Made by a program: the position numbers and the translations under genes. 64,000 bases of DNA from Heptranchias perlo (Eukaryota): contig NW_027139442.1 of NCBI RefSeq assembly GCF_035084215.1, forward strand, positions 4,526,001 through 4,590,000, read 5' to 3'. Position 1 is the first letter of the stretch. Every line of letters begins with the position of its first letter. Below, in pieces: positions 31,707-57,600 of the stretch. The notes beneath the pieces are model-generated. The model was given only the letters and a program-made list of their open reading frames with translations. It had not been told where the DNA came from and searched no databases.

Positions 31707-32596
31707 CTATGATTTAACGAATGTAACAATTAGATTCAGGGCGTATTTCACCCCGTTCTTCAGCTCCTCTCTGAATTTAGTCTGGGTCACAGCATAAATA
31801 CACGTGTTGGTGCAGGAACTGAGAAGTTGAAGCATGAATCCGGCTGACTCAATGTCACTGACCGTATAATACTGGGCGTTTGTTGTATGCAGAGAGATAA
31901 CATAAAAAACGTCTGTGCTCCATAACAATATAAAACTGCCTGATATACTGAAGAGTAAAATGATGGAATTCCTTCGGTTCTCCGTCTCTGGATCCTTGTG
32001 ATTCCCCCCATCACTGCGGCCCCGGAGTCCCCTGTGGATTCTATTTGCCGCTAAAATGTGCCTGGCGGTCAGAGCATTGAACAGAAAAATCAGAATGAAC
32101 GGGAGGCAAGGAGTTAACACAAGATTAAACAAGTCAAACGCTGCCCATGCGGGTGAAGTGAAAAAGGTCGGTTTCAAGACACAACCCCGAAGTACATTGT
32201 CCATTATATATTCCGGGTCAAATACAAAGTACCAGTGAATAATGCGGAAAAAGCTCAGCGCACTCACCACCCCGATAACAATAGCCGTCGTTTTCTCGTT
32301 GCAATATTTAGTTTTCAGCTTCTGACAACAAATGGCAACAAATCGATCAAAGGTGAAAACAACTGTGAACCAGACAGAGGCCGCTGTGTTAATTAAACTC
32401 AATATTTCAATGAGACGGCACACGGGGGTAATGCTCAAGAATGAAACTGTGAAATAAATATCAACAATGCGCCACATTATGACATCAGTGATAACGACCA
32501 GGAGATCGGCCGCTGCCATTCCCACCAGGTAGCGAGTGATACATTTGGAGAGTCCGCACTTTCCTCGGGATATGATCACAATCGCCATCAAGTTAA
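31707..32596 (-). CDS. GPR139/GPR142-like class A GPCR, copy 1, exon 2 (TM1 end to stop)
   Basis: 890-nt open exon after cttacAG. Hydrophobic TM segments, MAAADLL (TM2), FTFDRFVAIC (TM3), NTCIYAVTQTKFR (TM7/H8). With exon 1 gives 319 aa. Confidence 0.92.
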
Positions 32597-33598
32597 CTGT
32601 AAGAGAGAGAAACGGAAGCAGAGAAATTACTGATCAGACCTGGAGCCAAAGCAGCAGTTTGAAAGGATCTGGGGTAAAATTTCCAGATTTGTTGTTGCTT
32701 CAAACGGTGGGAACTGATTCACTGACCTGGGCAGCACCTTCGGGCAGAGAAATGTTTTTTAAACACAATTATCAATAATGAATTGGGAAATTGACACAGG
32801 AAGTGAATAAAGTGAGCACCGGATCCACTGAAAGGGCCAAGTGAGGGCGCAGTGCCGGTCGGGAAGAGAGAAGGTGTTTAAAGGCCGGGAATCCAATGGG
32901 TTAAATCAGTTTTTGCGCTCCAAATGGATGAGAAAGTGAGCGAAGGGCCGTGAAGATTAGGGGAGAGGGGAAGATGCGGCTGATTTGTTGCTCTGGGTTA
33001 AGAGAGCCGACAGTCGCTGGCGCTGAACGGGAAAGACCGAGATCCGTGGCGGTGTGTTTGAGGTTTCAGATCGGATTGGAGGCAGCTGGATGCCGAGCCA
33101 GTGAGTGAGATTCGGAGGGCGACAAGGAAAAGGACATGCAGGAGCTGGCGGGGAGTCAGGAGCAGATGATTTGGGAAAACGAATAAACTGATGCAACGGA
33201 TGAGGAGACAGAGGATTCAATGCAGTGGGAGGAGAGGCTCGGATTCACAGGGAGAGACTGCTGATTGTAAGAGGAAATCTAATCTATAGGTCCCAGTAAC
33301 ACAACGCAAAAAATGAATTCAACCTTTAATTTCTATCGTTATTGGCTTCAGGGAACATTTCGTTGTTTATATAATGTTTTCAATAAATTTACCTTGCACA
33401 TTCAATTAAATTTAATTAAAATGCATTGATTGAATTAGCTTCATTCTTTATTGAATTAAGCTGACACATAGCTTCTAGAATTCAGTATCTCAATAATTCA
33501 ATGCGATAAAGAAATCAATGATGTATTTCTTTATATAGATTCTAATTATATTTATGCATCCAGTCAGTAAACAAGTAAACGGAACATTCACATAAACA

Positions 33599-34127
33599 AA
33601 TGTAAGGAATCTTACAACACCAGGTTATAGTCCAAAAGTTTTATTTGAAAACCACATGCTTTCGGAGGCTTTCTCCTTTGTCAGGTGAGTGTGGGATTCC
33701 ATGGAAGGTACCGCACATATAGTCAGAGAACAATACCAGTTGATTACAGATAATCTTTCCAACTGCCCGTTATCAAGGCAATCAAAGGAGTGTTCAGACA
33801 GAGAGACATTACATAAAGGACCACTGAATATAAAAACGATCAGAACCCAAAGACAGAGAGAGAGAGAGAGAGAGAAACATCAATGTCTCGCTGTCTGAAC
33901 ACTCCTTTGATTGCCTTGATAACGGACAGTTGGAAAGATTATCTGTAACCACTAGGCATTGTTCACTGACGATATATGCAGTACCTTCCATGGAATCCCA
34001 TACTCACCTGACGAAGGAGAAAGCCTCCGAAAGCTTGTGATTTTCAAATAAAACTGTTGGACTATAACCTGGTGTTGTAAGATTCCTTCACTTTGTCCAC
34101 CCCAGTCCATCACCGGCATCTCCACAT
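33599..34127. mobile_element. Penelope-like element remnant (inverted terminal/pLTR arms) in the GPCR copy 1 intron
   Basis: ~205-bp inverted arms (33603-33810 / 33882-34088) around a (GA)n spacer. 14-bp direct repeat CATTCACATAAACA at 33585-33598 and 34128-34141, present once at the paralogous empty site (~55540-55553). Confidence 0.8.
34004..34040 (+). ncRNA. Minimal type I hammerhead ribozyme motif of the Penelope-like element
   Basis: TCAC-CTGACGA-A-GGAG(AAAGC)CTCC-GAAA-GC-TT-GTGA: stem I TCAC/GTGA, CUGANGA and GAAA cores, stem II GGAG/CTCC, palindromic AGCT mini-stem III. Confidence 0.65.
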
Positions 34128-35709
34128 CATTCACATAAACAGACTGAGGACCTCATGGTGATAAACACACCGGGAGAGAGTACAATAAAACTCTCACAAC
34201 CTGACAACATCCTAGTAACACCGTCAATTCACATTTCCTCTTCAAAATTGTCGTGGAAGTTTCAGCAGTTCATTCCGATGAATTATTCACACCACTGCCG
34301 CTCTGCCTCTTCCTCTCTCTCCTCGTTCTGTGTGCATGTCTTTCTCTCTCTGTCATTTTGTCTCGTTCCTTCTCCCCTCTCTCTCCTTTTCCTTCTCAGT
34401 CTCTTTCTCTATTACTCCTCTCTATCTCTCCGCACTCTCTCTACTCTCTTTCTCAATGCCGCTTTTCACATCCGAGTAAATCCTAACACCCTGGGCCTGC
34501 TTTCTCTCCACCAGCCCCGTATTCCAACGATCCTATTCTTAGTGTCAGTTTGTTAAATGGTGAAGCCCCTGTGAAGAGTTTAATGCTTCTACAGATCATT
34601 CAATTCTCCACCTGTTCACCGACACTGTTCACTTCATGTACAATGCATGGAATAAACAGAATCAATTGTCTCTTCCGGACACCTCACAATAATTGAAATT
34701 CCTTCTCCTGTAATTACAAAGTACAGCGTTAGATGGCGGCATTGTTCAATTAACAAAACGCCAACATGACCGCTGCAACTTATAATCTACAGATAAATCA
34801 AAGGGCTCATGATTCCAACAGATAAAGTCCAAACTGATCCAAAATAAACTCAAAACATTGCATTTTACAGTGAATTCATCCACAGTGAAGCAGAGAATGA
34901 GATGTGAAAGAATCAGCAGCAAAATCAGTTCAGTAACCAGACCTCCGGCGCTGCGTCAGATATGCATACAATGAAATAATATTTATTAACAGTGATAACC
35001 AATAAATACATTGAAATCCTAGTTGAACTGAACCATTTTAATTTGGAGGGAGGACATTGCGCTGCGTCCTTGGAACACAGAGTCCGTGAGATGTCTCATT
35101 ATCAATCATTGAAAACACATTTACAGAGAAATATTCCAGGACAGGTTGGTTTCACAACATGAAACTGTTAACAACTTCTGATAGTCTGATACCAGCTCTT
35201 AGCCCAGACACCTGATTCCAATACATTCAGTACAGAGAATGATCCAGTAACAATGCCAGGGTTGGATAAATAAAGTTCACTGCAGATATAATGCAATTGC
35301 AACACGACCGAACGTTTAAAATTTAAAGACATACCATTATTCCACAATACTTTCAGTACAGAGAATAATCCATTAATAATGCCAGCGATTGATATGCAAA
35401 GATCATAACAGATTAAATGCAGCTGCTACAAGACCGACGGTTTTGAAGTTAACGGCATATGATTATTCAACAATTCATTCAGTACAGGGAATAATCGAGT
35501 CGCAATACCAGCTTTGGATATACAGCATTCATTGCAGATATAATGCAGCTCCTACAAGACCGAAAGAGCAGAGACTTTAAACATTCCATCATTCAACTGA
35601 TAGAACAGAAGAGGTGGCTGTGTAAAACATGGTGGAAGAAAAAAATTGCCAAGTACAGCAGCACAGTTAACAGCGATTTACAACATTCACAGATGAAATA
35701 ACGGCTTAC

Positions 35710-35779
35710 CTGGAACTCCAATGGCTGCAAGGATAGGATAGTAAAGGCGTTCTATCTGAATTATTACTGGATATCCCAT
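35710..35779 (-). CDS. GPR139-like GPCR copy 1, exon 1 (MGYPVIIQIERLYYPILAAIGVP|G)
   Basis: 70 nt, ATG at 35779, donor CCAG|GTAAG phase 1, joins exon 2 in frame (GVP-V-NL); paralogous to 54228-54297. Confidence 0.88.
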
Positions 35780-35864
35780 TTCTGTGAGAACCAGTGACTT
35801 CTGTTGACCTGCAAACCGCAGCTCCGGCAGGCACTCTGAGCTGATACATTGCAACAAGCTCTGA

Positions 35865-35870
35865 TTTATA
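35865..35870 (-). promoter_or_regulatory. Candidate TATA box of GPCR copy 1
   Basis: TATAAA ~90 nt upstream of the ATG, conserved at the same position in copy 2. Confidence 0.45.
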
Positions 35871-36199
35871 GAGGAGATAAATCTCCACTGACACGGTTAT
35901 ACCCCTGATCATTGTTATTAGTTACAGTCATTTGAATAAACACATTACATCAGCAGTGTAACCCAGGGATGTAACAGGAACTGGATATTCGTGTTTCTTT
36001 ACATGTGTCACATGCCTTACCAATCTTTCAATATTCGGACACAGGAAACACTTGTTAAGATGAAACAGATCCCAATGGATTAACTGCTTCACTTCACACC
36101 AGGTATACTCACAAACCAATCGGTATCATTGGCTTGAAAAATTCAATCAGTTCAACTTAAATGAACATAATAATATAAAATAAAGGATATGCTGCACTT

Positions 36200-37620
36200 C
36201 CCCACATCATCGGATCATTTTGCGAGCCCTAAACAAAATGTCGTCTGCCTGTCCCCCAGTTGTCGTCTAACCTTTTAAGTCTGTGAAAGTTTATCCTCCC
36301 CGGAGAACACTCTGACCCTGATAATTCTATGCAGTACCCATCTTTTGGTCAAGGTGTTCTCCGCCCCAGCCAGAAACAGGTCCAGCTCTCGCTTGAATGA
36401 AGTCAGCGAATCGACGTCCACTGCACGAACCGGCAGCCTGTTCCAGAGGTTCATGATTCTCTGGGAAAAGAATCACTTCCTGACATCTACCCTCGATCTG
36501 GCTTTGTACAACTTAAAATTGTGACCCCTGGTCCTCCCTAACCTATTTAGTTGGCAAAAACTGTCTTATTCACCTGGATCAAATCACCCCAAATTCTACG
36601 CTTCTCTAAAGTCTAGTGTCCGAGGTCATAGAATAGAATCATAGAAGTTTACAACATGGAAACAGGCCCTTCGGCCCAACATGTCCATGTCACCCAGTTT
36701 ATAACACTAAGCTAGTCCTAGTTGCCTGCACTTGGCCCATATCCCTCTATACCCATCTTACCCATGTAACTGTCCGAATGCTTGTTAAAAGACAAAATTG
36801 TACCCGCCTCTACTACTGCCTCTGGCAGCTCGTTCCAGACACTCACCACCCTTTGAGTGAAAAAATTGCCACTCTGGACCCTTTTGTATCTCTCCCCTCT
36901 CACCTTAAACCTATGCCCCCTCGTTATAGACTCCCCTACCTTTGGGAAAAGATTTTGACTATCTACCTTATCTCTGCCCCTCATTATTTTATAGACTTCT
37001 ATAAGATCAGCCCTAAACCTCCTACTCTCCAGGGAAAAAAGTCTTGGTCTATTCAACCTCTCCATATAAGTCAAACCATCAAGTCCCGGTAGCATCCTAG
37101 TAAATCTTTTCTGCACTCTTTCTAGTTTAATAATATCCTTTCTATAATTGGGTGACCAGAACTGTACACAGTATTCCAAGTGTGGCCTTACTAATGTCTT
37201 GTACAACTTCAACAAGACATCCCAACTTCAGTATTCAATGTTCTGACCAATGAAACCAAGCATGCTGAATGCCTTCTTCACCATCCAATCCACCTGTGAC
37301 TCCACTTTCAAGGAGCTATGAACCCGTACTCCTAAATCTCTTTGTTCTATAACTCTCCCCAACGCCCTACCATTAACGGAGTAGGTCCTGGCCCGATGCG
37401 ATCTACCAAAATGCATCACCTCACATTTATCTAAATTAAACTCCATCTGCCTTTTAGCCTATCTTGACAACTAAGAGGTTTCAAACTGGGAATTAATCTA
37501 GTGGCCATCCTCTGCACCCTTTCCAAAGCCTCACTATCATCAACCATGTGGAGAGACCACAACTGGACAAAGTAGTCAACTGAATCCTGATCAAGGTCCT
37601 GTTCAAAGACAAAATAATAG
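36200..37620 (-). mobile_element. Nested CR1 LINE fragments
   Basis: LYKTLVRPHLEYCVQFWSP, MEFNLDKCEVMHFG. Confidence 0.9.
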
Positions 37621-37639
37621 GCGTTGTGTTGTAACCAAC

Positions 37640-40345
37640 TGGAGTTCAATGTGGGAAAGTGACGGCTCATCCACTTTGGCCCTAAGAAAAATATATCAGA
37701 GTATTTTCTGAACGGCGAGAAGCTGGGAACTGTGGAGGAGCAGAGAGATTTAGGTGTTCAAGTCCAGGAATCAATAAAATCGAGCGGATAAAGGTACGAA
37801 AATTAATTAAAAATCCTTTATCTCAAGAGGGCTGGAATGCAAGGGGGTGGAAGTTATGTTACATTTGTACAGCACTCTGGTGCGACCCCATCTGGGGCAC
37901 TGCGTTCAGTAGTGGTACCAAAGCTCAGGAAGGACATATTGGCATTGGAGGGGGTGCAGCGCAGATTCACGAGAAAGATACTGGGGCTAAAAGGGTTAAA
38001 TTATGAGGACAGGTTGCATAGACCAGGCATGTATTCAATTGAATGTAGAAGATTAAGGGGAGATCGAATTGAGTTGTTTGAGAGCATCAAAGAAAGTGAT
38101 AGGGTAGATAGACATGAACTATTTCCTCTGGTGGGGTAGTCCAAAACAATGGGGCATAACCTTAAAACTAGAGCTCGGCCTTTCAGGGGTGATGTGAGGA
38201 AACACTTGTTCACAAGAAGGGTAGTGGAAATCAGGAAAACTCTCCTCAGAAAAGCTGTTGGGGCTGGGGGCCAATTGAAAATTTGAAAGCTCAGATTGAT
38301 AGAATTTTGTTCGGCAGGATATTAAGGGTTACAGAACCAATGTGGCAGATGGAGTTAAGATACAGGTCAGCCATGATCTAATTGAATGACGAATCAGGCT
38401 TGCCAGTTTTAATGGACTACTCTGGTTCCCCTGTCCCTATGTTCCCATGTCATATAAATAGTCCCCGGCACCCTATTCTCTTTACCTATCACATCATGGC
38501 ATTGCTCATGAATCTATAGAGCTCTATGTAAAAAGAAAAATATTAGTGAAGACAAATGTGGGTCCCTTACAATCAGAAAAGGGAGAGTTTATAATGGGGA
38601 ACAGGGAAATGGCAGAGCAATTCAACAAATACTTTGGTTCTGTCTTCACGGAAGACGACACACAGAACTTGCCAGAAATATTAGGGAACCAAGGGGCTAG
38701 TGAGAAGGAGGAATTAAAGAAAATGAGTATTAGCGAAAAAATAATGCTGGAGAAATTAATGGGACTGAAAGCCGATAAATCCGCAGGAGCTGAAAAATTG
38801 CATCCCAGAGTACCAAAAGAGGTAGCCATGGAAATAATGGATGCATTAGTTGTCATCTTCCAAAATTCTATAGATTATGGAACAGTTCCTGCAGATTGGA
38901 AGGTGGTAAATGTAACACCACTATTTAAAAAAGGAGGGAGAGAGAAAACAGGAAACTACAGAGTGGTTAGCCTAACTTCATTAGTAGGGAAAATGCTCGA
39001 GTCTATTATAAAGTAGGTGATAACAGGACACTTAGGCAAAGTCAACATGGGTTTAGAAAGGGAAATCGTGTTTGACAAACCTACTGGAGTTTTTTGAGGA
39101 TGTAACTGGTAGAATAGATCAGGGAGAACCAGTGGATGTGGTTTATTTGGATTTTGTGAAGGCCTTTAATAAAGTGGCACATGAGAGGTTAGTGTGCAAA
39201 ATTAACGTATATGGGATTGGGGGTAATATATTGGCATGGATTGAAAATTGGTTAACAGATAGGAAACAGAGAGTAGGAATAAATGGGTCTTTTACGGGGT
39301 GCCACGCAGTGACTAGTGTGGTACGGCAGTGATCAGTAATTTGGCCCCAGCTATTCAGAATTTATATCAATGATTTGAAAGATGGAACCAAATGTAAGAT
39401 TTCTAAGTTTGCTGGCGACACAAAACTAGGTGGGATCATGAGTTGTGAGGAGGATGCAAAGAGGCTTCAAAGCGATTTGGACAAGTTGAGTGAGTGGGCA
39501 AATACATGGCAATTGCAGTATAATATGGATCAATGTGAAGTTATCCACTTTGGAAGGAAAAACAGAAAGGCAGAGTATTATTTAAACGGTGATAGATTGG
39601 GTAATGTTGATGTACAAAGGGACCTCGGCATCCTTGTACACCAGTCACTGAAAGCAAACATGCAGGTGCAGCAAGCAGTTAGGGAGGCAAATGGTATTTT
39701 GGCCTTCATTGCACTAGGATTTGAGTAAAGGAGCAGGGAATTCTTACTGCAGTTATGAAGGGCTTTGCTGAGACCACACCTTAAATATTGTGTGCAGTTT
39801 TGTTCTCCTTACCTCAGAAAGGGTATACTTGCCAAAGAGGGAATGCAGCGAACGTTAACAGAACTGATCCCTGGGATGGCAGGACTGTTGTATGAGGAGA
39901 GATTGGGTCGACTCTGCCTGTATTCACTCGAGTTTAGAAGAATGAGAGGGGACCTCATTGAAACATATAGAATTCTGAGAGGGCTAGACAGACTGGATGC
40001 AGGGAGGATGTTTCCCCTGGCTGGAGGGTCCATAACGAGGTGTCACAGTCTCAGGATACGGGGTAGGACATTTAGGACTGAGATGAGGAGAAATATCTTC
40101 ACTCAGTGGGTGGTGAACCTGTGGAATTCTCTACCACAAAAGTCTGTGGAGGCCAAGTCACTGAATATTTTTAAGAAGGAGCCAGATAGATTTCTAGACA
40201 CAAAAGTCATCAAGGGGTACGGAGAGAGAGCGGGAATACGGTATTGAGATTGAGTATCAGCCATAATCACATTGAATGGGGGAGCATGCTCGAATGGACG
40301 ATCGACTGACTCCTGCTGTTATTTTCTATGTTTCTATGTTTCTAT
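37640..40345 (+). mobile_element. Two CR1 LINE copies (37640-38450 and 38525-40345)
   Basis: VPADWKVVNVTPLFKKG, VVYLDF.KAF, KFAGDTKLG, C-terminal domain and tails. Confidence 0.9.
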
Positions 40346-40349
40346 TTAG

Positions 40350-42850
40350 ATCCAGTCACGAGCCCAAACCCCCAATGCATCAAGATCCGCCTGAAACAGT
40401 CTACAATCCTGAAACTCGCACAAATCTCAGCAACATCTGCAAATCCTGCCCCCAACACCTACATCTAGATCATTAATTAATATCGTAAAAAGCAATGTTC
40501 CTAACACCGATCCCTGCAGGATACCACTGTTGAGCGGACTCCAAACAGATCCAAATGTACCTATAACTACTTTCTGCCTACGTCCTTCCAGCCAGTTCTC
40601 AATCCAGCTCAATATATTACCACTAATTTCGGACGCTTCGATCTTGTAGAGAAGCCTCTTGTGTGGTACATTATCCAAAGTTTATGGAAGTCTAAGCAGA
40701 AAGCATCTATTGGGCTTTCCACATCTACCATATTGGAGACTTCTTCAAAAAATACAAGCAAATTTATAAGACATGGTCGCCTATTTTTGAAGCCATGTTG
40801 GATGGCCCTAACGTGTCCTTCTCTATCCAAATAGTCACAGATTGCATCGCTAATGATTCCCTCAATACCGACGTTAAATTACTGGGTATTATAGTTACAC
40901 GGATCCGTCTTTCCTCATTTTTTTAAAGATGGGGATTGCATTACACTCCTTTCAGTATAAGGAAACCATCCCAGAGCGCAGCGAGCTATTCAAGAAAGGG
41001 ACAAGGGGCTCGCACAGCACGAGCCCCATCTCCCTATGAACTAACGGATGAATATCATCCAGACCGGCTGCCCTTGCTATTTCAAGCTTCATAATTCTTT
41101 CTAAAGCAATAAGTTCATCGATGTTAAAATTAACATTTTTTTATTAACATCATTAAATTATGACAGTCGATCATCTCCTTCAAGTGTGAAGACCGATGCA
41201 AAGTCCTCATTTAATATTTCCGCCTCACTTTGTGAGTCCTTCGTTACCTGTCCTTGATCATCCTTCAATGGCCCAATACAGTCTTGGCAGTTGTCCGACT
41301 CTTCACATAACTGTAAACGCTTTTCCCAAAATATCCACAATTCTCTATGATCCTCTTTTCCATTATACTTTTAGCTGATCTAACAGCAACCTTAGTTTTC
41401 TTATTCTGTTCCCGGTATCTAACTCTGTTCAGTTGAGTATTCGATGCCTTTAGTTTGTAGAAACACTTTTGTTTACATTTTATTTCTCTTTGTTCATGAC
41501 CAATCAGTGACCTTGCCTTTTCTCACCACATTCCCTTTTTTCGACTTTTGGCACATATTTTTCCTCCACGTTTTTTGTCTTGTTTTTCAAAAACTTCCCA
41601 TTTATATTCAACATCGGGTTAATCACCGGTTTCGTTGTGTTAGCCAATTAACCTGTTCCAAATCTTCTGCCATTTTACTGAAGTTTGCCAGAATGAAATC
41701 TGGAATGAGTTGTACATTTTCAGTAACTTTCGTTCTACCAGCCAATCGAAACCTTATAATATTGTGGTCACTGTTGCCCAAGTGTTCCCCCACATGGAGG
41801 CCTGATACGAGCTCAGGCTCAGTATTAAACACTCGATTAAATATATGATTACCCCTGTGAAGGATTTTAAATTTTCAATATAGATCTTTCACTTGCTAAA
41901 GGAGCAGAGTTTGGTTCAACACAGGATGGAACACAGAACTGTTAGACTTGACTGTTCAACACGGTATTCTGGGAAGGTTGAGCAAGTTCAGAAGGTTTTA
42001 TTATTGCTTCTGATTGTTTAGAAGCCTCACCGAGACGATGTACTTGCGCTGAGATAAGGGACAAGGTTAAATTTAAGACAGCTGTCGAGCTGGGCCTTGA
42101 AAGTCTGTGGGAAACTGTCATAAACATCAGATGCTGCAGCATCAGTTTGTTGAACGATGGGAAAGTGAGAGAGGGAAAGGAGAGAGAGTGAAAAGTTCCA
42201 GCAGCTTGTTTTTATCAGCGAGGATGGGAAAACATTTCTCCTCATTTCCCCTCTAGTTCTTTTGCCAATTGTTTTAAATCTCTGACCTTTGGTTACCGAA
42301 CCACTTACCAGTGGAAACAATTTCTCCCTGTTTGCGCTACCAAAACCCCTCATGATTCTGAATACCTCTATTAGGTCTCCCCTTAACCTTCCCTGCTGCA
42401 AGGAGAACAATCCCAGATTTTCCAATCTTTCCACATAACTAAAGTCTCTAATTTCTGCTATCGTCATGGTAAACCTCCTCTGTACCTCTCCAGGGCCTTG
42501 ACATCCTTCCCAAAGCGAGGTCTAAACAATGATTTGTAAAGGGTCAGCATTACTTCCTTCTTTTTGTATTTAATGCCGCTATTTAAAAAGCCAAGTGTCC
42601 CATTCGCTTTCTTAACCACCTTATCAACTTGCCCTGTCACCTATAAAGATTTGTCAATATGCACCCCCAGGTCCCTCTGGTCTTGCACCCCCCTCAAAAT
42701 AGTGCCATTTAGAATCGACTGCCTCCACATGCGATTCCTCCTGAAGGGCATCAAATCACACTTATCCGCATTAAATTGCAACTGCCATGTGTCTGCCCAT
42801 TTCGGCCACCTGTCTATGTCCTCCTGAAGTCTGCTATTATCCTGCTCACT
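40350..42850 (-). mobile_element. CR1 LINE fragments
   Basis: GILQGSVLGTLLFTILINDLD, HLGNSDHNIIRF, LQEDIDR..KWADTWQL.FN motifs. Confidence 0.85.
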
Positions 42851-44119: not shown

Positions 44120-45520
44120 AGATAGTGAAAACCTCGAATCAAGTATAAAAAGACTGAGAACCTCACTGTCCTATGGCCACCCCGAGGATTTACTGGGCTG
44201 AAAAGCACCTCCTTATGTACTCCAAGCAGACAACTATACCTGAGGTATGTGGACCTGATATACTCAGAGACTCAGAGTAATGCGAAAGGGGGCGTGGAGA
44301 AGTCAGGCTGGGAGAGGGGGCGAGACTCCTTGGGCTGTGCTCTGACCATCCTTCCTATTTCAGGGCGCAATTTTCGAACGCTCCCGTTATCGGACCAGTT
44401 GGACGGGACTTGAAATGTTCAGGCACATTGTAAAAGAGGCCTGCAATAATATTTCGAGTCGCTGAGTTTCAGAGCAAGGCAACGTGAGGCGGAAAGAGTA
44501 GTGAATCTCATTTCACTAGAGACGGACGCAGGACTTGCCCCAGGTGTAGTTTTGTGTTCAAAGATCACTTCACTAAAAACACCTTGACGGGGTGGTGTTA
44601 CAAACGGACATGACGGGCAGGAAAAGAGTTGGTTCATCAATCCTGCCCCACATGTCTGGAGCATTGTGATTGGACACTTCCTACCGACACCACCCGCCCT
44701 ACCCACCGGAAACATGTAATCTCCTGGGAGCGGTTACAAACCAGAAAAAAATCCAGGGCTAATAAGGAGATGATATTCAGGCAAATTCCTCCCCGACTCC
44801 CTCAGGCGATCGAATCGAGTTCAGTGGATCACATTGACAATGTGTCGGTTAACTGCAAAACCACTCACCTTCTATATGATGCGCTCTCGGTCCCAGTCAA
44901 GAACCGGTCCAGATCCCTCGAGAAGGCGGAGAGAGAGAGTCAGTAGACATCTAATCAGCCGGCAATGCATTCCAGAGACTCACTACTCTCTGAGAAAAGA
45001 AGAACCGCCGAACATCCAGACTATTCTTACCTCCGTGTGGTCTAAACGACTGTACGCTGCTCCTCCCCAACCTGTAAAACAGGAAATAATCTATTTCTTC
45101 ACTCTGATGGTGGTGAACCTGTGGAATTCTCTACCACAGAAGGCTGTGGAGGCCAAGTTACTGAATATATTTAAAAAGGAGACAGATAGATTTCTAGAAA
45201 CAATAGGCAGGAAGGGGTATGGGGAGGGAGCGGGAGATGGTATTGAGATTGAGGATCAGCCATGGACATATAGAAAGGCTGAGCAGGCTCGAAGGGCGAA
45301 TGGCCGCCTCGTGCTACTATTTTCTTTATTTTTATCACTGGGCACGCTTTCCAGCCCCGGGATGGGAGCCGTTTAAAAGGCGCTTGCGAGCTTCCATTGA
45401 ATTTTATCGTGTGCAGAGCGTTCGGTTTTTCTCGACGTAAAGAAACTCTTGCCTGTCTTTGTGTGTGAAGGTGAGGTGAGGACAAGAGGATTTTTTCAAA
45501 ATTTGAAACAAAAAAACGTT

Positions 45521-45592
45521 TGGAGATACCGGGGATTGAACCCGGGACCTCATATATGCAAAGCATGCGCTCGACCACTGAGCTACATTTAT
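45521..45592 (-). tRNA. tRNA-Ala(TGC), near-intact body but broken 5' acceptor strand (probable pseudogene)
   Basis: ATAAATGTAGCTCAGTGGTCGAGCGCATGCTTTGCATATATGAGGTCCCGGGTTCAATCCCCGGTATCTCCA. A/B boxes present, oligo-T pol III terminator immediately downstream, 5' GGGG replaced by ATAA. Confidence 0.7.
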
Positions 45593-47262: not shown

Positions 47263-47382
47263 ACATTCGAAAGTAAACTCCAGTTGAAGTAAACAAGCGT
47301 GTTTCCCCTTTGTCTCTCCCAGACAACCAACGCTTACGGCTGCTTGTTGGAGACATAAGAAGCTCGACTAGCTTTCGGTAAA

Positions 47383-47456
47383 GCATTCGTGGTTCAGTGG
47401 TGGTCACATTCTCGCTTCCAACACGAATAACCCAGTTTCGATTCCCGGTTGATGCA
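47383..47456 (+). pseudogene. tRNA-Gly pseudogene
   Basis: GCATTCGTGGTTCAGTGGT...ATTCTCGC...TTCGATTCCCGGTTGATGCA matches the tRNA-Gly(GCC/CCC) scaffold; anticodon arm degenerate. Confidence 0.7.
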
Positions 47457-47994
47457 GCTTGAATTTTAGTTTAGATCTATAATTGGCCAACATCATTCAA
47501 CCCCGCTAATTGCTAAAATTCACAGTTTGTTGACGGCTGTCCATAGTGACGCCACTATTCCCGGCAAGAATGGAGATGATTGCGTAATTACTGCGTCAAT
47601 CACTGCTGTAAGTGCCTGGGTTTGACTTTACGCACATAATTTTATTATGTAACTATCCTGCTCTCATCGCATTTTGCAAACACACAAACATACAAAGAAT
47701 GAGAGACGGGAAAGGACCTTCTGGTCGATCCAGCCCGTCCCATGCCATTGTCATACTTTGTGTTTCACACGATTTCCACGCCCCACCCCACCCAAAGCCA
47801 TGCGATCTCCTGCGGCAGAGGAAAAACAGGTAAAACCAATTGCAATTGGGGGGAATCTGGGAATTTCCTCTCTGACCAATTAGGAGATCGAAACTGGACG
47901 AGGAGATCAATCTGGCCCTCGTAATTTTAGGCATTGCCTCCCTTTTTTATGCGGTGATCTCCAGCCCTGTCAGAAATAGGTCCAGCACTCGTTT

Positions 47995-48258
47995 GAAATA
48001 TTGCTGAAGAAATGATCAATTTGTATTATGTAACTATCCTCCACTCATTGCATTTTGCTGGAGAAATAATCAATTTATATTATGTAACAGTTCCCCACTC
48101 ACTGCATTTTACTGGAGAAATAATCAATTTGTATTATGTAACTATGCCACACTAACTGCATTTTACTGGAGAAATGATCAATTTATATTATGTAACTATC
48201 CTCCACTCTACATTTTGCTGAAGAAATAATCAATTTTTATTATGTAACTTTCGTCCAA
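47995..48258. repeat. ~55-bp tandem repeat, ~4.5 copies
   Basis: Unit TTTTGCTGAAGAAATGATCAATTTGTATTATGTAACTATCCTCCACTCATTGCA; a solo copy at ~47635-47680. Confidence 0.85.
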
Positions 48259-48417
48259 TCACAGAACCTTGATGGAGAAGTAATCCTGCATTCATTGGGA
48301 GACTTTGCTGTAGTTTCGGTCATGAGTTCTGTTTGCTGCAGTTGCGAGAAACTCTGTTCAAATAGTATGTTTGTTGTAGCGCTTAGTGTTTGCTGAGTAA
48401 ATAAACTGTTTCTCCAG

Positions 48418-51400
48418 TCGTGGATATGTGTTGTACCAAGGGCAGCCCAGAGTGTGTCGGTCGTGCAGCAAACCCGGGCACGGGGCGGCCTCGGGCAAGG
48501 CAGTGATCTGTTGCATGGAGAGCCATCAGACACTGGACTGTCAGGAGGCCAAGTGCTGCAACTTTAGCGAACAGTCTGTTCACCTGCACAAGACCTGCTC
48601 AAACTCCAGCTACAGCTGCGCACAGGCAGCGAGGGGCGAGGTGACGCAGGAGAAGTGAGCAGCAGTAGTGACTGTTCCAGAAGAGGCCAGACCTCTCGCC
48701 CCCACGATGGACACCCGTGAAAGAGCCAAATAACAGGAGGTGGACAAAGAGCAGCAAGGGAGCGTCGAGGAATCCTGCAAGACCCCGACACTCTACCGCG
48801 AGACTATTCACAAGCACACAGAGCCAATGGAAGGTGAACCAGGGGTGTGATGGGAGGAAGGATGGAACACGCAGGAAAAAAAAGAGGAAGTTCCGAAGAA
48901 GCAGAGGAACTGACGCCAAATGTGGGACTGGCAGCAAGAGGCGCTTTATAGTCCTCAATGGACAACAGCGGCTGCTCCTCGACTGACGAACAAGATAAAG
49001 GGGGAAGACCCCGCCCTCATCAAAGAGAGCGGCAAAACGCAACAGTGAGAAGTGACACAGACAGCATGCTGCTGCTCCAGGGTTTCTGGAGCAGTAACAC
49101 CCAGCTCTGGGGCACCGGGAGAAGTGACACAGACAGCCCGCTCCAGCTCGAAGGACTCGGGAGCAGTAACACCCCGCTCTGGGGCACCGGGACAAGTGAC
49201 ACAGACAGCACGCTCCAGCTTCAGGGACTCGGGAGCAGTAACACCCAGCTCTGGGGAACCGGGACAAGTGACACAGACAGCACGCTCCAGCTCCAGGGAC
49301 TCGAGAGCAGTAGCACCCAGATCTGGGGCACCGGGAGAAGAGACGCGGATAACGAACAACCTGCGAGAGCCAAGGAGCCAGATCCGGTCGGGGATCTCAC
49401 GGGCACATCGCCCCACGAGACCCCGCTGACGAGCCCCGATCGCAGATACTCCCCCAAGGGAGGACAGACCTCGTACCTCAGACGAAGAACGGTTCTGCAG
49501 TTTGTGCACACTACGCGAATGAAGAATTTGGACCAATGGATGGAAACGGAGGGTAATATTGAATACGGACTGATTCAATTTAGGACCTTAATTTTGTCCC
49601 TTTTGTATTTTTAAAATGGCTTTACAAATGGCATCATTCAACGTGCATAGTGTTAATTCGACGAGACAATGTGCTGCAACACTGAACTAACTGTCCAGGG
49701 TCAAGAGGGACCTGCTGTACTTGCAGAAATGCGGGATGCCGAACCTCAGCAACTACCGGCAGTGGTCACGCATGTGGATCCAAGGGCAGTTGATCTGGTC
49801 GGGAGGCAACGATAACCGTTCCTCGGGCCTGGAAATTCTGCTGCGAGGAGGCCAATTCGCCATCACTGATGTTAAGGAGGTGGTGGGGGGCCATCTGCTC
49901 GTAGCAGACGTTCAGGAGAAGGACGCCCCGCTCCTACTTATCAATGTTTAAGCCCCGGCCTTCAACAGGATAGGCTGGAGGTCGTTCAGCATCTCCTTTG
50001 CAGCTGGGCGATCCAGCAGGGAAGGCACAATACTGGATTCCACGTCCAAACTCCTGTTGCAGGTGGTGAAAGACACAAAGCTTCGCGACGTTTTCAGAAC
50101 CCCTGCAGATGGACCACCACGGAGACACAGCTGGTCCAGGCCACGCGGGTCCGTCTGTTCCAGGATAGACTTTCGGTTTGTGTCCCCAACGCTCATGGTC
50201 AGATCCACCGAAGTCCAGACGGTGTTCTTCCCTGACCACTGCCTCCTACTGGCCGACTGCCAATCGCAGGAGGACCAGAGTGTGGGCAGGGGTACCTGGA
50301 AGCTGAATGTGACACTGTTGACCCCGGATAACATCGAGGTTCGAAAAGGGTTTACAAAGGTTGGAGTACCATGAAACCCCTCTTCCACTCCACGGTTCAC
50401 CGGTGGGAAGCGATCAAGGCCAATATCAACAACTTCTTCATCCTCAAATGTGCTCAGAAGGCGAGAGAGAGACAAAGGGAATTTACAAAAATTGGCAACC
50501 CATTTCCTTGCTAAATGTCGACGACAAGATTCTTTCTAAGGTCATCGCCAACAGGCTCCAGTCTGCTCTGGAGCAGGTGATCAACCCGGATCAGACCTGT
50601 ACTGTACCCGGCAAGACGATCTCTGATAGCCTTGCGCCACCCAGGGATACGATCGCCTTCGTGCAGGACAGGGAGGTGAACACCTGCCTCATTAGCCTGG
50701 ACCAGACGAAGGCCTTTGACAGAATATCCAGACGTACATGATGGATGTGCTTTCCATAATGGGTTTTTGGGAGGGAATCCGCGATTGAATTCGACTGCTC
50801 GACATGGATATCCATAGCGCAGTCCTAATCCACAGGTGGGGATCAGAGAGCTTTCTAATCAGATCTAGAGTCAGGCAGGTTGTCCTCTCTACGGTCTTGT
50901 TCGTATATTGTATGAAGCCGTTTGCCACATCCATCAGGAAGGACGCAGGTATCAAAGGGTTGACGATTCCAGCCAGGGAGGCTCTCAGATTAAGGCTTCC
51001 CTGCACATGGACGATGTCAACCGTTTCTGCACCGATCAGCGCTCGGTACACAGGCTGATGGGCGTCTGCCACCGTTTTGAGCTGGCCTCGGGTGCCAGAG
51101 TGAACGAAGTGAGAGTGAGGCCTTGTTCTTTGGCAGGTGGAAGGCCCGGTCCCTTTTCCACTTCACCGTCAGGTCGGACTACCTGAAGGTGCTGGGGCTC
51201 TGGTTCGAGGGACCACTGACCAGCACCAAGAACTAGGAGGAGCGTGTCGCCAACACCAAACAGAAGCTTGGTATGTGGGTGGGGCGCTCCCTCTCCATAA
51301 TTGGCAGGAACCTGGTGATAAGCTGTGAGGTACTCGCGGTGTTGCTCAACGTGGCCAGGGTCTGGCCCGTTCCCTGCTGATCCTCCGTCACAGTCACCAG

Positions 51401-52490
51401 AGCTATCCTCCACTTTGTCTGGAGGTCCAAGGTGGAACACGTCGGCAGGGAGCCCATGTACAAGCCCCCAGGCAAAGGGGGCAGGGTGTCCCCAACGCCG
51501 CTCTGATGCTGATGGCCACTTCTGTGTGTGGCTGCCTCGGGATATGTGTTGATCCCCAGTACGCAAATACCAAGTGTCACTACGTGATGAGTTTCTACCT
51601 GTCCACCACACTGAGAAGGCTGGGTCTGGCCACGCTGGCCGAGCAGGTGCAGAACGTTCCGTCCAGCTGGACCGTCCCCCACCGCCTGTCCCAAGGCCGT
51701 CAGACAGTGGTCGGCACAGAACGTTCTAGGATTCCTGTCGGTAAAGGAAAGGTTGTATTCAATCGGGCAGTTCACCGACCAGACGGTCGAAGCCATTTGA
51801 CAGAAAGTCTCATCGCCATAACTGACCAGCAGGCACCAGGATATAGCCTGGATGGTGGTGAGAAGGGCCCTCCCAGTGCAGTCCTTCTAACATGCACAGA
51901 ATCTCAGCACCACCGCGAGCTGCCCTCGAAGCTGCAGCAGGGAAGGGACCATCGTCCATCTCCTGGTAGGCTGCCATTTGGCGCAGAAGGTGTGGAGACA
52001 TATGCGTTTGTATCTGTCCCGGTTCATCCCCAACAGCTCGGTAACACAGGACGCTGTGCTCTATGGGCAGTTCCCCAGGACGCACACTGAGACAGATATC
52101 AACTGCTGCTGGAAGACCATCAGCTCGAAGAAGGAAGCCCTTTGGTCCGCCGAAAACGTGCGAGGCTTCCAGCTGAAGGAGTTGTCCACGACCGAGTTTT
52201 GCCGACAGGCACACTCCAAGGTCCAGGAATATGTTTTGAGGGACGCACTGGAGCGAGTTGCTGCCTACATAAAGGGTCTATGGGGAAAGGCCACCTTGTC
52301 AGGCAATTTCACTTTGTATTGTACAGAATGTATTAGAAGATACGTACTGTGTTTTGAATTTTAATAATGAGGTTTTAGTGTGTGCGATCATTTATTTTAT
52401 TATTTTGAACAGTAATTGTGACATTTATAATGAAATGTGTGTATCCTTAAATTTTATGAAATAAAGCATATTTTGAAATTTTAATAAAAT
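48418..52490 (+). mobile_element. Tx1/L1-clade non-LTR retrotransposon, degenerate (gag-like ORF1 with Zn knuckles; ORF2 APE endonuclease + RT + C-terminal domain)
   Basis: RGYVLYQGQPRVCRSCSKPGH knuckle. ORF2 starts MALQMASFNVHS at ~49616; SRIDF...FPDH and GTWKLN (EN), NWQPISLLNVDDKILSKVIANRL and SLDQTKAFDR (RT). Many stops/frameshifts, deletion between EN and RT, AT-rich 3' UTR with AATAAA. Confidence 0.88.
49050..49340. repeat. 72-bp tandem repeat x4 inside Tx1 ORF1
   Basis: AGTGACACAGACAGC recurs at ~49051, 49123, 49195 and 49267. Confidence 0.9.
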
Positions 52491-53710
52491 CTTGGGGTAC
52501 AAATACAGCAATCACTAAAAGTAGGTTTACAAAAAGGCGAGTCAAGCACTGGGATTCAATTCCAGAGGGATGGAATTGATAAGCTAAGAAGTTATGTTAA
52601 ACTTGTATGGAGCCTTGGTTAGGCCACACTTGGATTATTGTGCACAGTCTGGTCTCCATATTATAGAAAGGATAGACAGGAATTGGAGAGGGAGCAAAAA
52701 AGATTCACAAGGTTGATACCAGAACTGAGGGGATATCCTTATCAGGAAAGGCTGAACAGGCTGGGACTCTTTTCTCTTGAAAAGAGAAGGCAAAGGGGTG
52801 ACCTAATAGAGGTCTTTAATATGTTGATAGGGTAGACGGAGAAAAAATGTTTCCAATTGTGAGGGAGTCCAAAATTAGAGATCATAAATATAAGATAGTT
52901 ACAAATAAATCCAGTAAGAATTCAGGAGAAACTTCTTTACCCATAGAGTGTTAAGACTGTGGAACGCGCTACCACAGGGAGTAGTTGAGGTAAATAACGT
53001 AGGTGCATTTAAGGAGAAGCTAGATAAGCACAAGAGGGAGACAGTAATAGGGTATCCTGATAGGGTTAGATGAAGTATGGAGGGTGGTGGATCGTGTGAT
53101 GCACAAAATCTGGCATAAACCAGTTGGGCCGAATGGCCTGTTTCTGTGCTGTAGTTTAGAAGTAACTCGATGAACTCAATGTATTATTTTTGGGGGTGGT
53201 GGAAGAGCAGAGGGACCTGGGGGCGCATATTCACAAATCTTTGAAGGTGGCAGGACAAGTTGATCAGGCGGTGAAGCAAGCAGATGGGATACATGGGTTT
53301 GCAAAGAGTAATATAGAATACACCAATAGGGAGTCATGTTAAACCTTTACAAAAGGCTGGTTAGGCCTTAGCTGGATTATTGTGTATAATTCTGGGCACC
53401 ACACTTTAAGGAGAATGTCAAGGCCTTGAAGAGGACACAAAGGAGATTTACCAGGGTGATGCCAGGGACGAGGGACTTCAGTTATGTGGAGGGATTGGAG
53501 AAGTTGGGATTGTTCTCCTTCGATCAGAGAAGATTAAGGGGAGACCTAATCGAGGTATTCAAAATAATGAGGGGTTTTTATGGAGCAAATAAGGGAAACC
53601 GTTTACTCCAGCAATTGGATTTGTAATCAGAGGTCATAGGTTTAAAACAATTGGTAAAACAACTGGAGGGGAAATGAGGAAAACATTTTTCACACGGAGG
53701 GTTGTTAAGC
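52490..53710 (+). mobile_element. Two CR1 3' fragments
   Basis: WSPYYRKD..ELEREQKRFTRLIP and RRFTRVMPG motifs. Confidence 0.85.
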
Positions 53711-54136
53711 ACTGCCTGGAAGATGGGGTCCCGTTTAAAGGCTGTCCTCGTATCAAAATTCATATTTTAACTGGGACTCTGCAGGAACAGATTGAAACGG
53801 GTCTGCTTGTGTCCCTGGATTCAATGTACAATGTGGAGAAATCGGTAAAATGTATGAATGAATCGGCAGGAGTGAACATGGTCAATACAATTATATGAAA
53901 ACTGTAAATGAAGCCGCTCATTGTTGTTGGACCAGTCCTTTCTGTGCACAGCTTTTAACTTTATTTCTGAGAGAGGTCTCAGTAAGATAATGTCCTGGAT
54001 TTTGAGGTGTTTGTGATATATCCACGTCATTAGTTACATCGGAGTCAAAGCTGCTGATGTAATGTGTTTGTTCAGGTGACTGTAACTAATAGCAATGATC
54101 AGGGGTATAACCGTGTCAGTGGAGATTTATCCCCTG

Positions 54137-54142
54137 TATAAA
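54137..54142 (+). promoter_or_regulatory. Candidate TATA box of GPCR copy 2
   Basis: TATAAATCAG ~90 nt upstream of the ATG, conserved in both paralogues. Confidence 0.45.
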
Positions 54143-54227
54143 TCAGGAATCTCTGCAATGAATCCGCTCACAGTACCTGCCGGAGCTGCGGTTTCCAGGC
54201 CAACAGAAGTCATTGCTACTCAAAGAA

Positions 54228-54297
54228 ATGGGATATTCAGTAATATATCAGATAGAATGTATTTATTATCCTGTTCTTGCAGCCGTTGGAGTTCCAG
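54228..54297 (+). CDS. GPR139-like GPCR copy 2, exon 1 (MGYSVIYQIECIYYPVLAAVGVP|G)
   Basis: 70 nt, ATG at 54228, donor CCAG|GTAAG, in frame with the exon at 56711. Confidence 0.88.
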
Positions 54298-55629
54298 GTA
54301 AGCCGTTATCTCAGCTGTTAATGGCGTAAATCGATATTATCTCTGCTGCTTTACTTGGCACTGTTTTTTCTCCCATCGTGTATTACACAGTGGAATGTTT
54401 TGTTCTCAGTCTCTGCTCTTTTGGTCTTGTAGTAGTTGCATTACATGCGTTACCATCTTCTACATCCAACCCTGGCATTGTTGCTGGATTATTCTCTGTA
54501 CTGAATGTATTGGAATCAGGTCTCTGGGCTAAGAGCTGATATCAGACCATAAGTAGTTGCTAACAGTTTCATGTTGTTGAATATACCCGCGCTACAATAT
54601 TTTTTCATAAATGTGTTTTCAGTGATTGATAATGAGATATCTCACGGCCTCAGTTTTAAAAGGAGGCAGCGCAATGTCCTCCCTACGCAATAACATGGTC
54701 CAGTTTAACTGGGATGTCAATGTATCTGTTGGTTATCACTGTGATGAAAGATTACTTAATTGTGCCTGCATCTGACGCCGCTTCTGGTTCAGATATCTGG
54801 TCACTGAAATGATTTTGCTGCTGATTCTTTCACATCTCATTCTCTGCTTCACTGTGGATGAATTCACTGTAAAATGCAACGTTTTGCGGTTATGTTGTAT
54901 CAGTTTGCAGTTTATCTGTTGGAATCATGAGCCCTTCTATTTATTTGTAGATTATAAGCAGCAGCTGTGATTTTGGCGTTTTGTTAATTGAACAATGCCG
55001 CCATCTAACGCTGTACTTTAAAATGTCTGGAAGAGGCATTCGATTCTGTTTATTCCATGCATTGTAGATGAAGTGAACAGTGTAGGTGAACAGGTGGAGA
55101 CTTGGATGATCTTAAGAAACATTAAACTGTTCACAGAGGCTTCACCATTTAACAAACTGACACTAAGAATATGATCGTTAGAACACTTGGCTGGTGTAGA
55201 TAAAGCAGGTGCAGGATGTTAGAATTTACTCGGATGAGAAAAGCGGCATTGAGAAAGAGAGTAAAGACAGAGCGGAGAGATAGAGAGGAGAGATAGAGAA
55301 CGCGACTCAGAAGGAACACAAGAGGGGGTAGAATTAAAGAGAAAAAAAGACACACAGAGACGACGAGAGATCAGAAATTGAGCGGGGCTGGGGGAGAGCG
55401 CCAGCGGGGTGAATAATTGATCGGATTGAACTGCCGGATGTGGAAATGTGACTTGAAGGTGTAATTCGGATGTTCTCAGATTGTGAAAGTTTTATTGTAC
55501 TCTCGCCGGGTGTGTTTATCGCTTTCAGGTCATCAGTCTGTTTATGTGAATGTTAATTTTACTTGTTTACTGACTGAATACATAAACATAATTGAAATAT
55601 ATTTAAAGAATAAAATCAGTTATTCCTTG

Positions 55630-55832
55630 ATTTTATTTTTATTCGTTCACGGGATGTGGGCGTCGCTGGCGAGGCCAGCATTTATTGCCCATCCCTAATT
55701 GCCCTCGAGAAGGTGGTGGTGAGCCGCCTTCTTGAACCGCTGCATTCCGTGTGGTGACGGTTCTCCCACAGTGCTGTTAGGAAGGGAGTTCCAGGATTTT
55801 GACCCAGCGACAATGAAGGAACGGCGATATAT
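55630..55832 (-). mobile_element. LINE 3' tail insertion specific to the GPCR copy 2 intron
   Basis: Reverse complement of the 3' end at 60170-60370; absent at the paralogous site (~33515). Related fragments at ~1020-1200 and ~6905-7210. Confidence 0.75.
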
Positions 55833-56710
55833 AGATCGCATTGAATTATTCGGATACTGTATTCTAGAATCTATGTGTCAGCTTAATTCAATAAAGAATG
55901 AGGCTAATTGAATGATTGCATTTTGATTTAATTTTAATTGAATGCGCAAAGTAAATTTATTGAACACGTTATGTAACCAACGAGCTGTTCCCTGACACCA
56001 ATAACCATAGAAATGAACTGTTGAATTTATTAATTGGATTGTGTTACTGGGGCCTATCGATTAGATTTCCACTAACACTCTGCTGCAGTCTCTCCCTGTG
56101 AATCCCAGCCTCTCCTCCCAGTGCATTGAATCCTCGGTCTCCTCGTCCATGGCTTCAGTTTATCCCCTCCACCTCCTACGTGTTCTTTCCTTTGTCGCCC
56201 TCCCAATCTCATTCTCTGGCTCGGCCTTCATCTGCTTCTTCCAACCCGATGCGAAGCCTCAAAATCACCGCCGCGAATCTCGTTCTTTCCCGTTTTGTGC
56301 CAGCCCCTGTCGGCCCACTTCACGCAGAGCAACAAACCAGCTGCATCGCCCCCTGTCCCCTCACCGACCCGGTCCTCGCTCACTTCCATCTGGAGCCCAA
56401 ATCCGGATTTAACCCTTTGGATTCCCAGTCTTCAAAACCCATTCTCCTTCCCCTCCGGCACTGCGCCCTCACTCGACCATTCCAGTGGATCCAGTGATCA
56501 CTTTATTCACTTTCTGTATCAATTTCCCAATTCATTATTGATAATTACCTTTTAAAACATTTCTCTGCCGAACATACTGCACAGGCCAGATAATCAGTTA
56601 ACACCGTTTGATGCAGCAACAAAGCTGGAAATTTCACCCCCTGATGAAACTGCTGCTTTGGCTCCAGGTCTGATCAGTAATTTCTCTGCATGTGTTTCTC
56701 ACTCTTACAG

Positions 56711-57600
56711 TTAACCTGGTGGCGATTGTGATCCTGTCCCGAGGAAAGTGCGGACTCTCCAAATGTGTCACTCGCTATCTGGTGGGAATGACAGCGGCCG
56801 ATCTCCTGGTCGTGATTACCGATGTTTTATTGAGGGGGATTAGTGAGATTTATTTCCCAGTTTCATTATTAACCATTACCCCTGTGTGCCGCCTCATTGC
56901 TATCCTGATTTCAGCAGCTACAGCGGCCTCTGTCTGGTTCACAGTGTTTTTCACCTTTGATCGATTTGTGGCCATTTGTTGTCAGAAGCTGAAAACAAAA
57001 TATTGCACCGAGAAAATGGCGGCTGCTGTTATCGGGGTGGTGAGTGCTCTGAGCTGTTTACTAAACCTTCCCTGGTACTTTGTAATTGAACCGGAATATA
57101 AAATGGACAATGTACCCCGGGGTTGTGTCTGGAAATTGATCCTTTTCACTTCACCCGCTTGGGCAGCGTTTGACTTGTTTTATCTTGTATTAATACCTTG
57201 TCTCCCATTCATTCTGATTTTACTGTTCAATATTCTCACCGCCAGACACATTTTAGCGGCCAATAGAGTCCGCAGGAGACTCCGGGGACGCAACAATGGA
57301 GAGAATCACAAGGATCCAGAGACGGAGAACCGAAGGAAATCCATCATTTTACTCTTCAGTATATCAGGCAGTTTTATATTGTTATGGAGCGCATTCGTTT
57401 TCTTTATTATCTCTCCGCGTATAACAAACATCAAGAACGATACGGTCAGTGACATTGAGTCAGCCGGAGTCATGCTTCAACTTCTCAGTTCCTGCACCAA
57501 CACGTGTATTTATGCTGTGACCCAGACTAAATTCAGAGAGGAGCTGAAGAACGGGATGAAATATCCACTGAATCTAATTGTTACATTAGTTAAATCATAG
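56711..57600 (+). CDS. GPR139/GPR142-like class A GPCR, copy 2, exon 2
   Basis: 890-nt open exon after ctcttacAG, same motifs and length as copy 1, TAG at 57598-57600; 319 aa spliced product. Confidence 0.92.

Follow-up and report, generated by a model that had tools for sequence, protein, structure and literature searches.

Two class A receptor genes of the shark Heptranchias perlo belong to a large, pocket-diversified family that is probably a sensor repertoire

Introduction

A stretch of 64,000 nucleotides from Heptranchias perlo (contig NW_027139442.1 of assembly GCF_035084215.1, positions 4,526,001 to 4,590,000; hereafter the window) contains two genes, A and B, for class A G protein-coupled receptors (GPCRs). 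An earlier note, made from the letters of the window, had described their products as paired orphan receptors with conserved cytoplasmic faces and diverged ligand-facing surfaces. This locus raises the question of whether the two genes belong to a diversifying receptor family, how such a family is related to GPR139, and what it might sense. The analysis presented here places A and B, both intact, in a family that is probably a sensor repertoire, in which many ligands would be read through one signalling output.

Results and Discussion

Structure of genes A and B

Genes A and B are intact two-exon class A GPCR genes of 319 amino acids each. They are arranged head to head, with start codons that are 18.4 kb apart and face away from each other. 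Gene A is on the minus strand. The coding part of its exon 1 (35710..35779, 70 nt), which has an ATG and a GT donor, encodes the short N-terminus and the outer part of the first transmembrane helix (TM1). The phase 1 intron (32597..35709) ends just before N1.50, and exon 2 (31707..32596) extends from TM1 to the C-terminus and stop codon, matches 7tm_1, and gives a predicted model with seven long helices. Gene B is on the plus strand and consists of the coding part of exon 1 (54228..54297, 70 nt), a phase 1 intron (54298..56710), and exon 2 (56711..57600), which runs from TM1 to the stop codon and also matches 7tm_1. Both introns are of the GT-AG type, exon 2 is 890 nt long in each gene, and the N-terminus is very short in both proteins. 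The PF00001 (7tm_1) scores are 71 and 84 bits for A and B, against a cut-off of 30.5. The predicted seven-helix model has a mean predicted local distance difference test score (pLDDT) of 67, and its Foldseek matches are class A peptide receptors. From promoter to 3' flank, unit A (28897..35956, minus) and unit B (54051..59370, plus) are inverted homologues, with 77-86% identity in blocks. No third family member was found within the window.

The two proteins are 78.4% identical and the genes 87.6% identical in nucleotides, with a whole-gene pairwise dN/dS of 0.60, which is not above 1. All 12 of the peptide motifs of the earlier note that were searched were located at the expected places. In exon 2, the residues that differ number 42 of 118 in the outer part, 15 of 110 in the intracellular part, and 6 of 66 in mid-membrane, where the classes were assigned from helix anchor positions and agree with the predicted model. 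The excess of outer over intracellular differences (Fisher p 1.3e-4) bears out the block differences described earlier at the outer helix ends and loops. The description of the receptors as almost identical intracellularly holds in that the inside is conserved, but it is only 86% identical. Charge changes at likely pocket positions were also recovered (W65/R, R66/G, E87/A, D252/F, and Y267/D), and of the 15 positions that correspond to ligand contacts in GPR139, A and B differ at 9. The two genes are not mutual nearest relatives: A groups with 10 other copies at 93% identity or more, and B with 5 at 98% or more. A second A-B pair, also spaced by 25.0 kb, is present on the contig. The pairing is nothing special, being part of a segmental duplication.

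Size and layout of the family

The degenerate patterns RGKCGLSKC and TFDRFVAIC(C/W) occur 2,048 and 2,309 times in the genome, and reversed-pattern controls gave 0 occurrences. Some of the pattern matches listed form arrays at the ends of two large contigs, of 172 Mb and 143 Mb. The family comprises over two thousand related class A GPCR loci in Heptranchias perlo. The earlier note had regarded a family with few members as fatal to its proposal, and these counts show the opposite. When the genome was searched with gene A, 133 of 4,493 candidates were scored, all of them at least 83% identical to A. An exact 29-base word from TM7 has 389 occurrences in the genome; among 100 places listed, 94 fall on the source contig (12.4 Mb) with a median spacing of 80 kb. 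Family arrays at C2:0.1-7.0 Mb and C3:137.8-140 Mb occupy the ends of chromosome-scale contigs and have several subfamilies interleaved.

Both exons are intact in 76 of the 100 listed loci; exon 2 is broken in 16, exon 1 is damaged in 3, and 5 have no exon 1 within the fetched stretch. Exon 2 is intact in 35 of 40 loci chosen on the two other large contigs, and both of these samples are biased to copies that retain the motif. On the source contig, 79 intact exons encode 71 distinct proteins, which form 53 groups at 99% identity. Receptor matches on contig C1317 recur exactly 3,999,424 bases apart, either because some 4 Mb were duplicated very recently or because the assembly contains this part twice. 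By extrapolation, there are roughly 1,100-1,900 distinct intact genes.

A search of public proteins gave 4,054 candidates, of which 2,433 have an E-value of 1e-20 or better. All 119 named proteins among the 120 matches listed are from sharks, skates or rays, and nearly all are automatically named probable GPR139. The nearest named relatives of gene A among the matches listed are Heptranchias perlo proteins with at most 83% identity. No chimaera is present among the 119 named top matches to gene A, so family membership is unconfirmed there. A Logan-derived relative (P0096) is without exon-1 sequence and therefore gives no evidence of spliced RNA.

Positive selection on the outer face and pocket

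Codon models were applied to 51 paralogues below 97% identity, selected from 134 exon-2 sequences obtained from 160 fetched loci. Two of the first 60 loci were dropped for stop codons, and 16 broken loci, 3 with a damaged exon 1, and 5 with indels were dropped from the next 100. The models were self-written, with F3x4 codon frequencies, branch lengths taken from a nucleotide tree and scaled by a single factor, five beta classes, and naive empirical Bayes site assignment. A dN/dS (omega) of 0.68 was obtained under M0. The comparison of M2a with M1a gave a doubled log-likelihood difference (2dlnL) of 260, with 14% of sites at an omega of 3.1. The comparison of M8 with M7, the check that had been proposed in the earlier note, gave 275 in favour of M8, and that of M8 with M8a gave 241.

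Posterior probabilities above 0.95 were found for 25 sites, of which 22 are in the outer half (Fisher p 3.5e-7). They include 2.61, 2.65, 3.29, 3.30, 3.32, 3.33, and 3.37 in TM2 and TM3; residues 149, 164, and 166 of extracellular loop 2 (ECL2); residues 181 and 185 of TM5; and 6.50, 6.51, 6.58, 6.59, ECL3, and the start of TM7. At the 15 positions mapped from the GPR139 ligand contacts given in the available sections of PMC8807744, omega is 1.67 (p 0.004). The values for the intracellular and mid-membrane classes are 0.46 and 0.38, respectively. The substitutions are thus not scattered at random with low values at the pocket, and the diversifying repertoire proposed earlier is upheld, both by the size of the family and by positive selection at pocket and outer sites. 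In two further subfamilies, too, the selected sites show raised variability (p 3e-5 and 0.017). When each of four segments was given its own tree, the signal was kept in three (likelihood-ratio test (LRT) values of 88, 21, 1.0, and 60). The selection signal withstands the recombination controls.

The activation machinery is uniform. Residues N1.50, C3.25, D3.49, R3.50, the ECL2 cysteine, P5.50, N7.49, Y7.53, and F8.50 are invariant in 102 of 102 distinct proteins, and D2.50, the DRx motif, the TM3-ECL2 cysteines, P5.50, W6.48, and N7.49/Y7.53 are each present in 94 to 102 of them. P6.50 and P7.50 are absent in the family. The same 102 proteins carry 62 different 19-residue pocket signatures, and the positions of the GPR139 residues E3.32, F3.33, R6.51, and N7x38 vary among the paralogues.

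Patchwork histories and gene conversion

The family genes are patchworks. When the coding sequence is divided into four segments, the conflict between their preferred trees amounts to 461 log units, compared with -9 to 70 in 12 simulations that included selection and excluded recombination. Approximately unbiased (AU) tests of the segment trees were set aside as biased, and the simulation was used instead. In locus L012, for example, codons 55-100 most resemble A-type genes and codons 101-318 have their closest counterparts in other genes (9 genes compared).

The four-fold silent identity between subfamilies is 0.77 at inner and 0.45 at outer positions (35 and 22 sites, p 0.002), and a second between-subfamily comparison gave 0.75 and 0.40 (p 0.003). 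Among the 298-aa genes themselves, the silent identity is 0.87 at inner and 0.72 at outer positions (p 0.011). Between subfamilies, identity is 0.87 in the core promoter, 0.84 at the intron end before exon 2, and 0.69 at silent sites overall. Since silent sites are blind to selection on the protein, gene conversion is the likely cause of this contrast. The uniformity of the inner face appears, from these sequence comparisons, to arise partly from gene conversion in addition to purifying selection; convergent change and local mutation effects are less likely alternatives. The outer segments would escape homogenisation either through selection that rejects conversion there or through divergence that blocks it.

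Relation to GPR139, GPR142 and GPR210

The true GPR139 of this genome is a single locus on another contig, 88% identical to a human GPR139 record, and GPR142 is another separate single-copy gene. Genes A and B are only 23-24% identical to GPR139. The GPR139 ligand-contact residues E3.32, F3.33, H5x43, W6.48, R6.51, and N7x38 correspond to S/I, L/S, N/Y, W/W, D/F, and F/V in A/B, with a TM5 register that is uncertain by three residues. In a tree of 33 proteins, rooted on two unnamed distant proteins and with a long-branch warning at the root, the family forms one clade (97/94) that is sister to salamander proteins (100/99). Two clades of fish and coelacanth proteins (90/86 and 99/97) branch next, and GPR139 and GPR142 are on a separate branch (100/100). 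A quick tree of 46 proteins gave the same separation. Orthology to GPR139 was ruled out by the trees, by the separate true orthologue, and by the ligand-contact residues, which are not kept. The claim that the family is built on the GPR139 scaffold was consequently abandoned; it branches with GPR210-like and salamander receptors.

The intron of gene A has the same position and phase as that of the true GPR139 of this genome, the best solved-structure match of the family is GPR139 (E 1.7e-7), and the most similar full-length non-shark matches are salamander and coelacanth proteins. GPR139 is absent from the Foldseek top 50 for the predicted model, and the fold comparison therefore does not resolve the subfamily. 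Judged from the best matches, the shared intron, and the tree, the family is placed within the wider GPR139/142/210 clade. The two fish and coelacanth clades probably correspond to GPR210A/B, as far as these are described in the available text of PMC6504862; the label was assigned from their species. A further single-copy GPR139-related receptor, L216 (G000:C5:114752744-114753592), is also automatically named GPR139. It has orthologues in chimaera, coelacanth, lungfish, and ray-finned fish and is probably one of the GPR210 subtypes.

Proposed function

On the evidence of the sequences, the family probably serves as a repertoire of sensors. The pocket of each receptor, between TM2, TM3, TM5, TM6, and TM7, would accept a different range of small molecules or peptides, and all receptors would activate the same G protein through the uniform inner face. 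Tandem and segmental duplication would supply the copies, new specificities would arise by point change and by segment swapping among tandem copies, and purifying selection together with gene conversion would hold the signalling face uniform. GPR139 is coupled primarily to Gq/11 and also to Gi (PMC8807744, available sections). By analogy with GPR139, the coupling may be to Gq or Gi/o and the ligands may be amino-acid-like or peptides. Some genomic hallmarks of chemosensory repertoires are present, namely a large clustered family, pocket-focused positive selection, and pseudogenes. Within the sensor reading, external chemosensing (nose, taste, skin, or gut epithelium) would take slightly the larger part of the probability, immune or barrier sensing a good third, and other functions a small remainder. 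By comparison with known repertoires, chemosensing is somewhat more likely than immune sensing, from the size and architecture of the family and the small known shark repertoires.

Several observations weigh against a sensor repertoire. The outer half overall has an omega of 0.93, not different from 1, and because the inner half is also loose, at 0.46, relaxed constraint contributes. One of the four segments, analysed on a separate tree, lacks the selection signal (LRT 1.0). All 8 runs on mosaic data simulated with no positive selection yielded LRT values of 19-59, so that nominal p-values are inflated, although the observed 260 is far above this range. CpG overlap is found in 7 of the 25 selected sites versus 48 of 294 overall. 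The silent-site contrast is not significant in 3 of 6 comparisons, and the four-gamete distance test gave a p of 0.10. The family counts may be swollen by assembly duplicates, as indicated by the C1317 offset and the reduction of 79 exons to 53 groups. In a catshark brain-plus-olfactory library, no GPCR is among the 50 top genes given in the available text of PMC11979771.

The more specific form of the sensor reading that survives best is a further olfactory or taste receptor family, sparsely expressed in sensory neurons or chemosensory cells, to which somewhat less than an even chance is given. The size and clustering resemble those of odorant receptors, including the arrays at the ends of two large contigs, and the very short N-terminus and pocket diversification fit as well. 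Catshark repertoires are small, with 5-8 genes each for the odorant receptors (OR), ORA, and TAAR (PMC6368271, available text) and 34 V2R genes (PMC10116579, available text). The latter source also reports Go and TRPC2 in catshark sensory neurons, which would suit Gi/o or Gq signalling.

The promoters bear on this form from both sides. The names forkhead, Ebf, and homeodomain are used here as presumptive assignments. The putative core promoter block of gene A (35865..35942, minus) contains TATAAA at 35870-35865 and a forkhead-like TGTTTAT at 35942-35936; that of gene B (54065..54142, plus) contains a forkhead-like TGTTTGT at 54065-54071 and TATAAA at 54137-54142. In two promoter sets, 33 from the A/B subfamily and 8 more, a TATA box is located 91 nt upstream of the ATG in 29 and 7, respectively, and the forkhead-like word is common to 31 and 8. 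A module that combines, in relaxed form, an Ebf-like TCCYGAGAG with a homeodomain-like word was found in 23 of the 33 and 5 of the 8, which would suit an olfactory role. Gene A, however, is without this module and gene B has a degenerate version; 0 of the 33 promoters contain a strict Ebf-type pattern, control DNA is also rich in homeodomain words (23 of 33), and the promoters are homologous copies and not independent observations. A composite Lhx2/Ebf site with strict spacing is described in the available text of PMC5608512.

Two further words were noted in the promoters. TGATGTAAT is present in both the gene A (35950-35943, minus) and gene B (54056-54064, plus) promoters and presumably resembles a C/EBP-ATF amino-acid response element. 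TGATGNAA was found in 23 of the 33 A/B-subfamily promoters and in 4 of the other 8.

A doubtful but still credible form is that of receptors on leukocytes or in barrier tissues that recognise peptides of microbes or parasites, in the manner of formyl-peptide or Mas-related receptors, and that diversified in an arms race. Recent rapid turnover, positive selection, and segment exchange are consistent with it. So is an Ig-domain gene on the minus strand with at least four Ig-like exons (12529-12245, 10745-10425, 9165-8812, and 8278-7973), located 19-24 kb from gene A and weakly similar to OSCAR/HIDE1. This gene has 19 close copies on two contigs, and each of the 11 A-type receptors has one at 23-28 kb. 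The linkage follows from segmental duplication, however, and has little functional meaning; the OSCAR match is weak (E 0.001). The one small supplement at hand of a nurse-shark spleen study does not mention the family, which is a weak test.

It is unlikely that the expansion is largely neutral, produced by segmental duplication in unstable arrays with a relaxed outer face and no new specificities. Such an origin would suit the 16 of 100 loci with a broken exon 2 and 3 more with a damaged exon 1, the outer-half omega close to 1, the duplication of whole segments with neighbour genes, and the many near-identical copies. It is opposed by the comparison of M8 with M8a, in which omega above 1 is set against neutrality (241), and by the M1a/M2a value of 260 versus a mosaic-null maximum of 59. 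The selected sites fall on pocket positions, the activation motifs are invariant, and relatives occur in sharks, skates, and rays. Redundant dosage copies of a GPR139/GPR142-equivalent amino-acid sensor are highly improbable, since the paralogues do not retain E3.32, F3.33, R6.51, and N7x38 and differ among themselves at these positions, and since the true GPR139 and GPR142 are separate, even though GPR139 is the best solved-structure match and shares the intron position.

Significance

The kind of system is already known; this family itself is only automatically named probable GPR139 in databases. No description of it was found in the literature on GPR139 in sharks and other chondrichthyans, GPCR expansions in shark genomes, GPR139/142 phylogeny, or GPR210, with subscription papers outside the search. 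Term look-ups in the available text of shark genome papers and a GPR139 review did not return a description either. The supplements at hand of PMC10529500 (one small file) and PMC13200729 (five files) contain nothing on the family. Only tens of chemoreceptor genes are described for cartilaginous fishes in the available text of PMC6368271 and PMC10116579, despite large olfactory organs, and 1,948 OR genes are given for the elephant in that of PMC11979771. One to two thousand pocket-diversified receptors under one automatic name make the puzzle of the small chemoreceptor repertoire directly testable. We tentatively propose, at less than even confidence, that sharks and rays possess an unrecognised chemoreceptor family that was recruited independently from a GPR139/GPR210-type orphan and in Heptranchias perlo rivals the largest mammalian odorant repertoires, with outer segments shuffled onto a conversion-homogenised chassis and a low-copy relative in salamanders. 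That relative could then reveal the ancestral ligand. If its role were immune instead, the family would stand beside adaptive immunity as a very large set of germline-encoded sensors. In both cases, it is a GPCR family whose signalling face is apparently homogenised by gene conversion while the pocket diversifies.

Other features of the window

Minisatellite arrays with periods of 36-72 nt are located at 5981-6728, 9383-10147, 27082-27553, 49047-49340, and 60726-61826. No tRNA was called by ARAGORN in the window. A tRNA-like sequence at about 45520-45590 (minus), not called by that program, is probably a pseudogene or the head of a short interspersed element (SINE). Many short open reading frames elsewhere in the window are presumably fragments of long interspersed element (LINE) reverse transcriptase, which they resemble.

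Comparison with known systems

The odorant, V1R, TAAR, formyl-peptide, and Mas-related receptor repertoires are clustered birth-and-death arrays with pocket diversification and a conserved inner face. The present family differs from them in its origin within class A and in its two coding exons. With GPR139 and GPR142, which are activated by L-Trp and L-Phe (PDB 7VUG and 9M42), it shares the class A fold, the lack of proline at 7.50, and the wider clade, and with GPR139 the intron just before N1.50. Unlike these two receptors, it is on a separate branch, has lost P6.50, and has pocket residues that are replaced and hypervariable; its copies number in the thousands, compared with one each for GPR139 and GPR142 in this genome. 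GPR210A/B and a third subtype (Rinne et al. 2019, PMC6504862) are GPR139-related orphan receptors of fishes and coelacanth, low-copy and conserved in contrast to the family, and the available survey text of that paper includes no shark. The GPR210-like clades, so labelled from their species, are the nearest vertebrate branches of the family after the salamander proteins. The latter (P0466 and P0508-P0511), its sister group, include the uncharacterised probable GPR139 of Pleurodeles (XP_069092602.1) and Ambystoma (XP_069461538.1), which resemble the family in their short N-terminus and in the motif in intracellular loop 3 (ICL3). They form one cluster of 5 sequences from three species and are therefore apparently low-copy, and the salamander relative is a possible low-copy model for the ancestral ligand.

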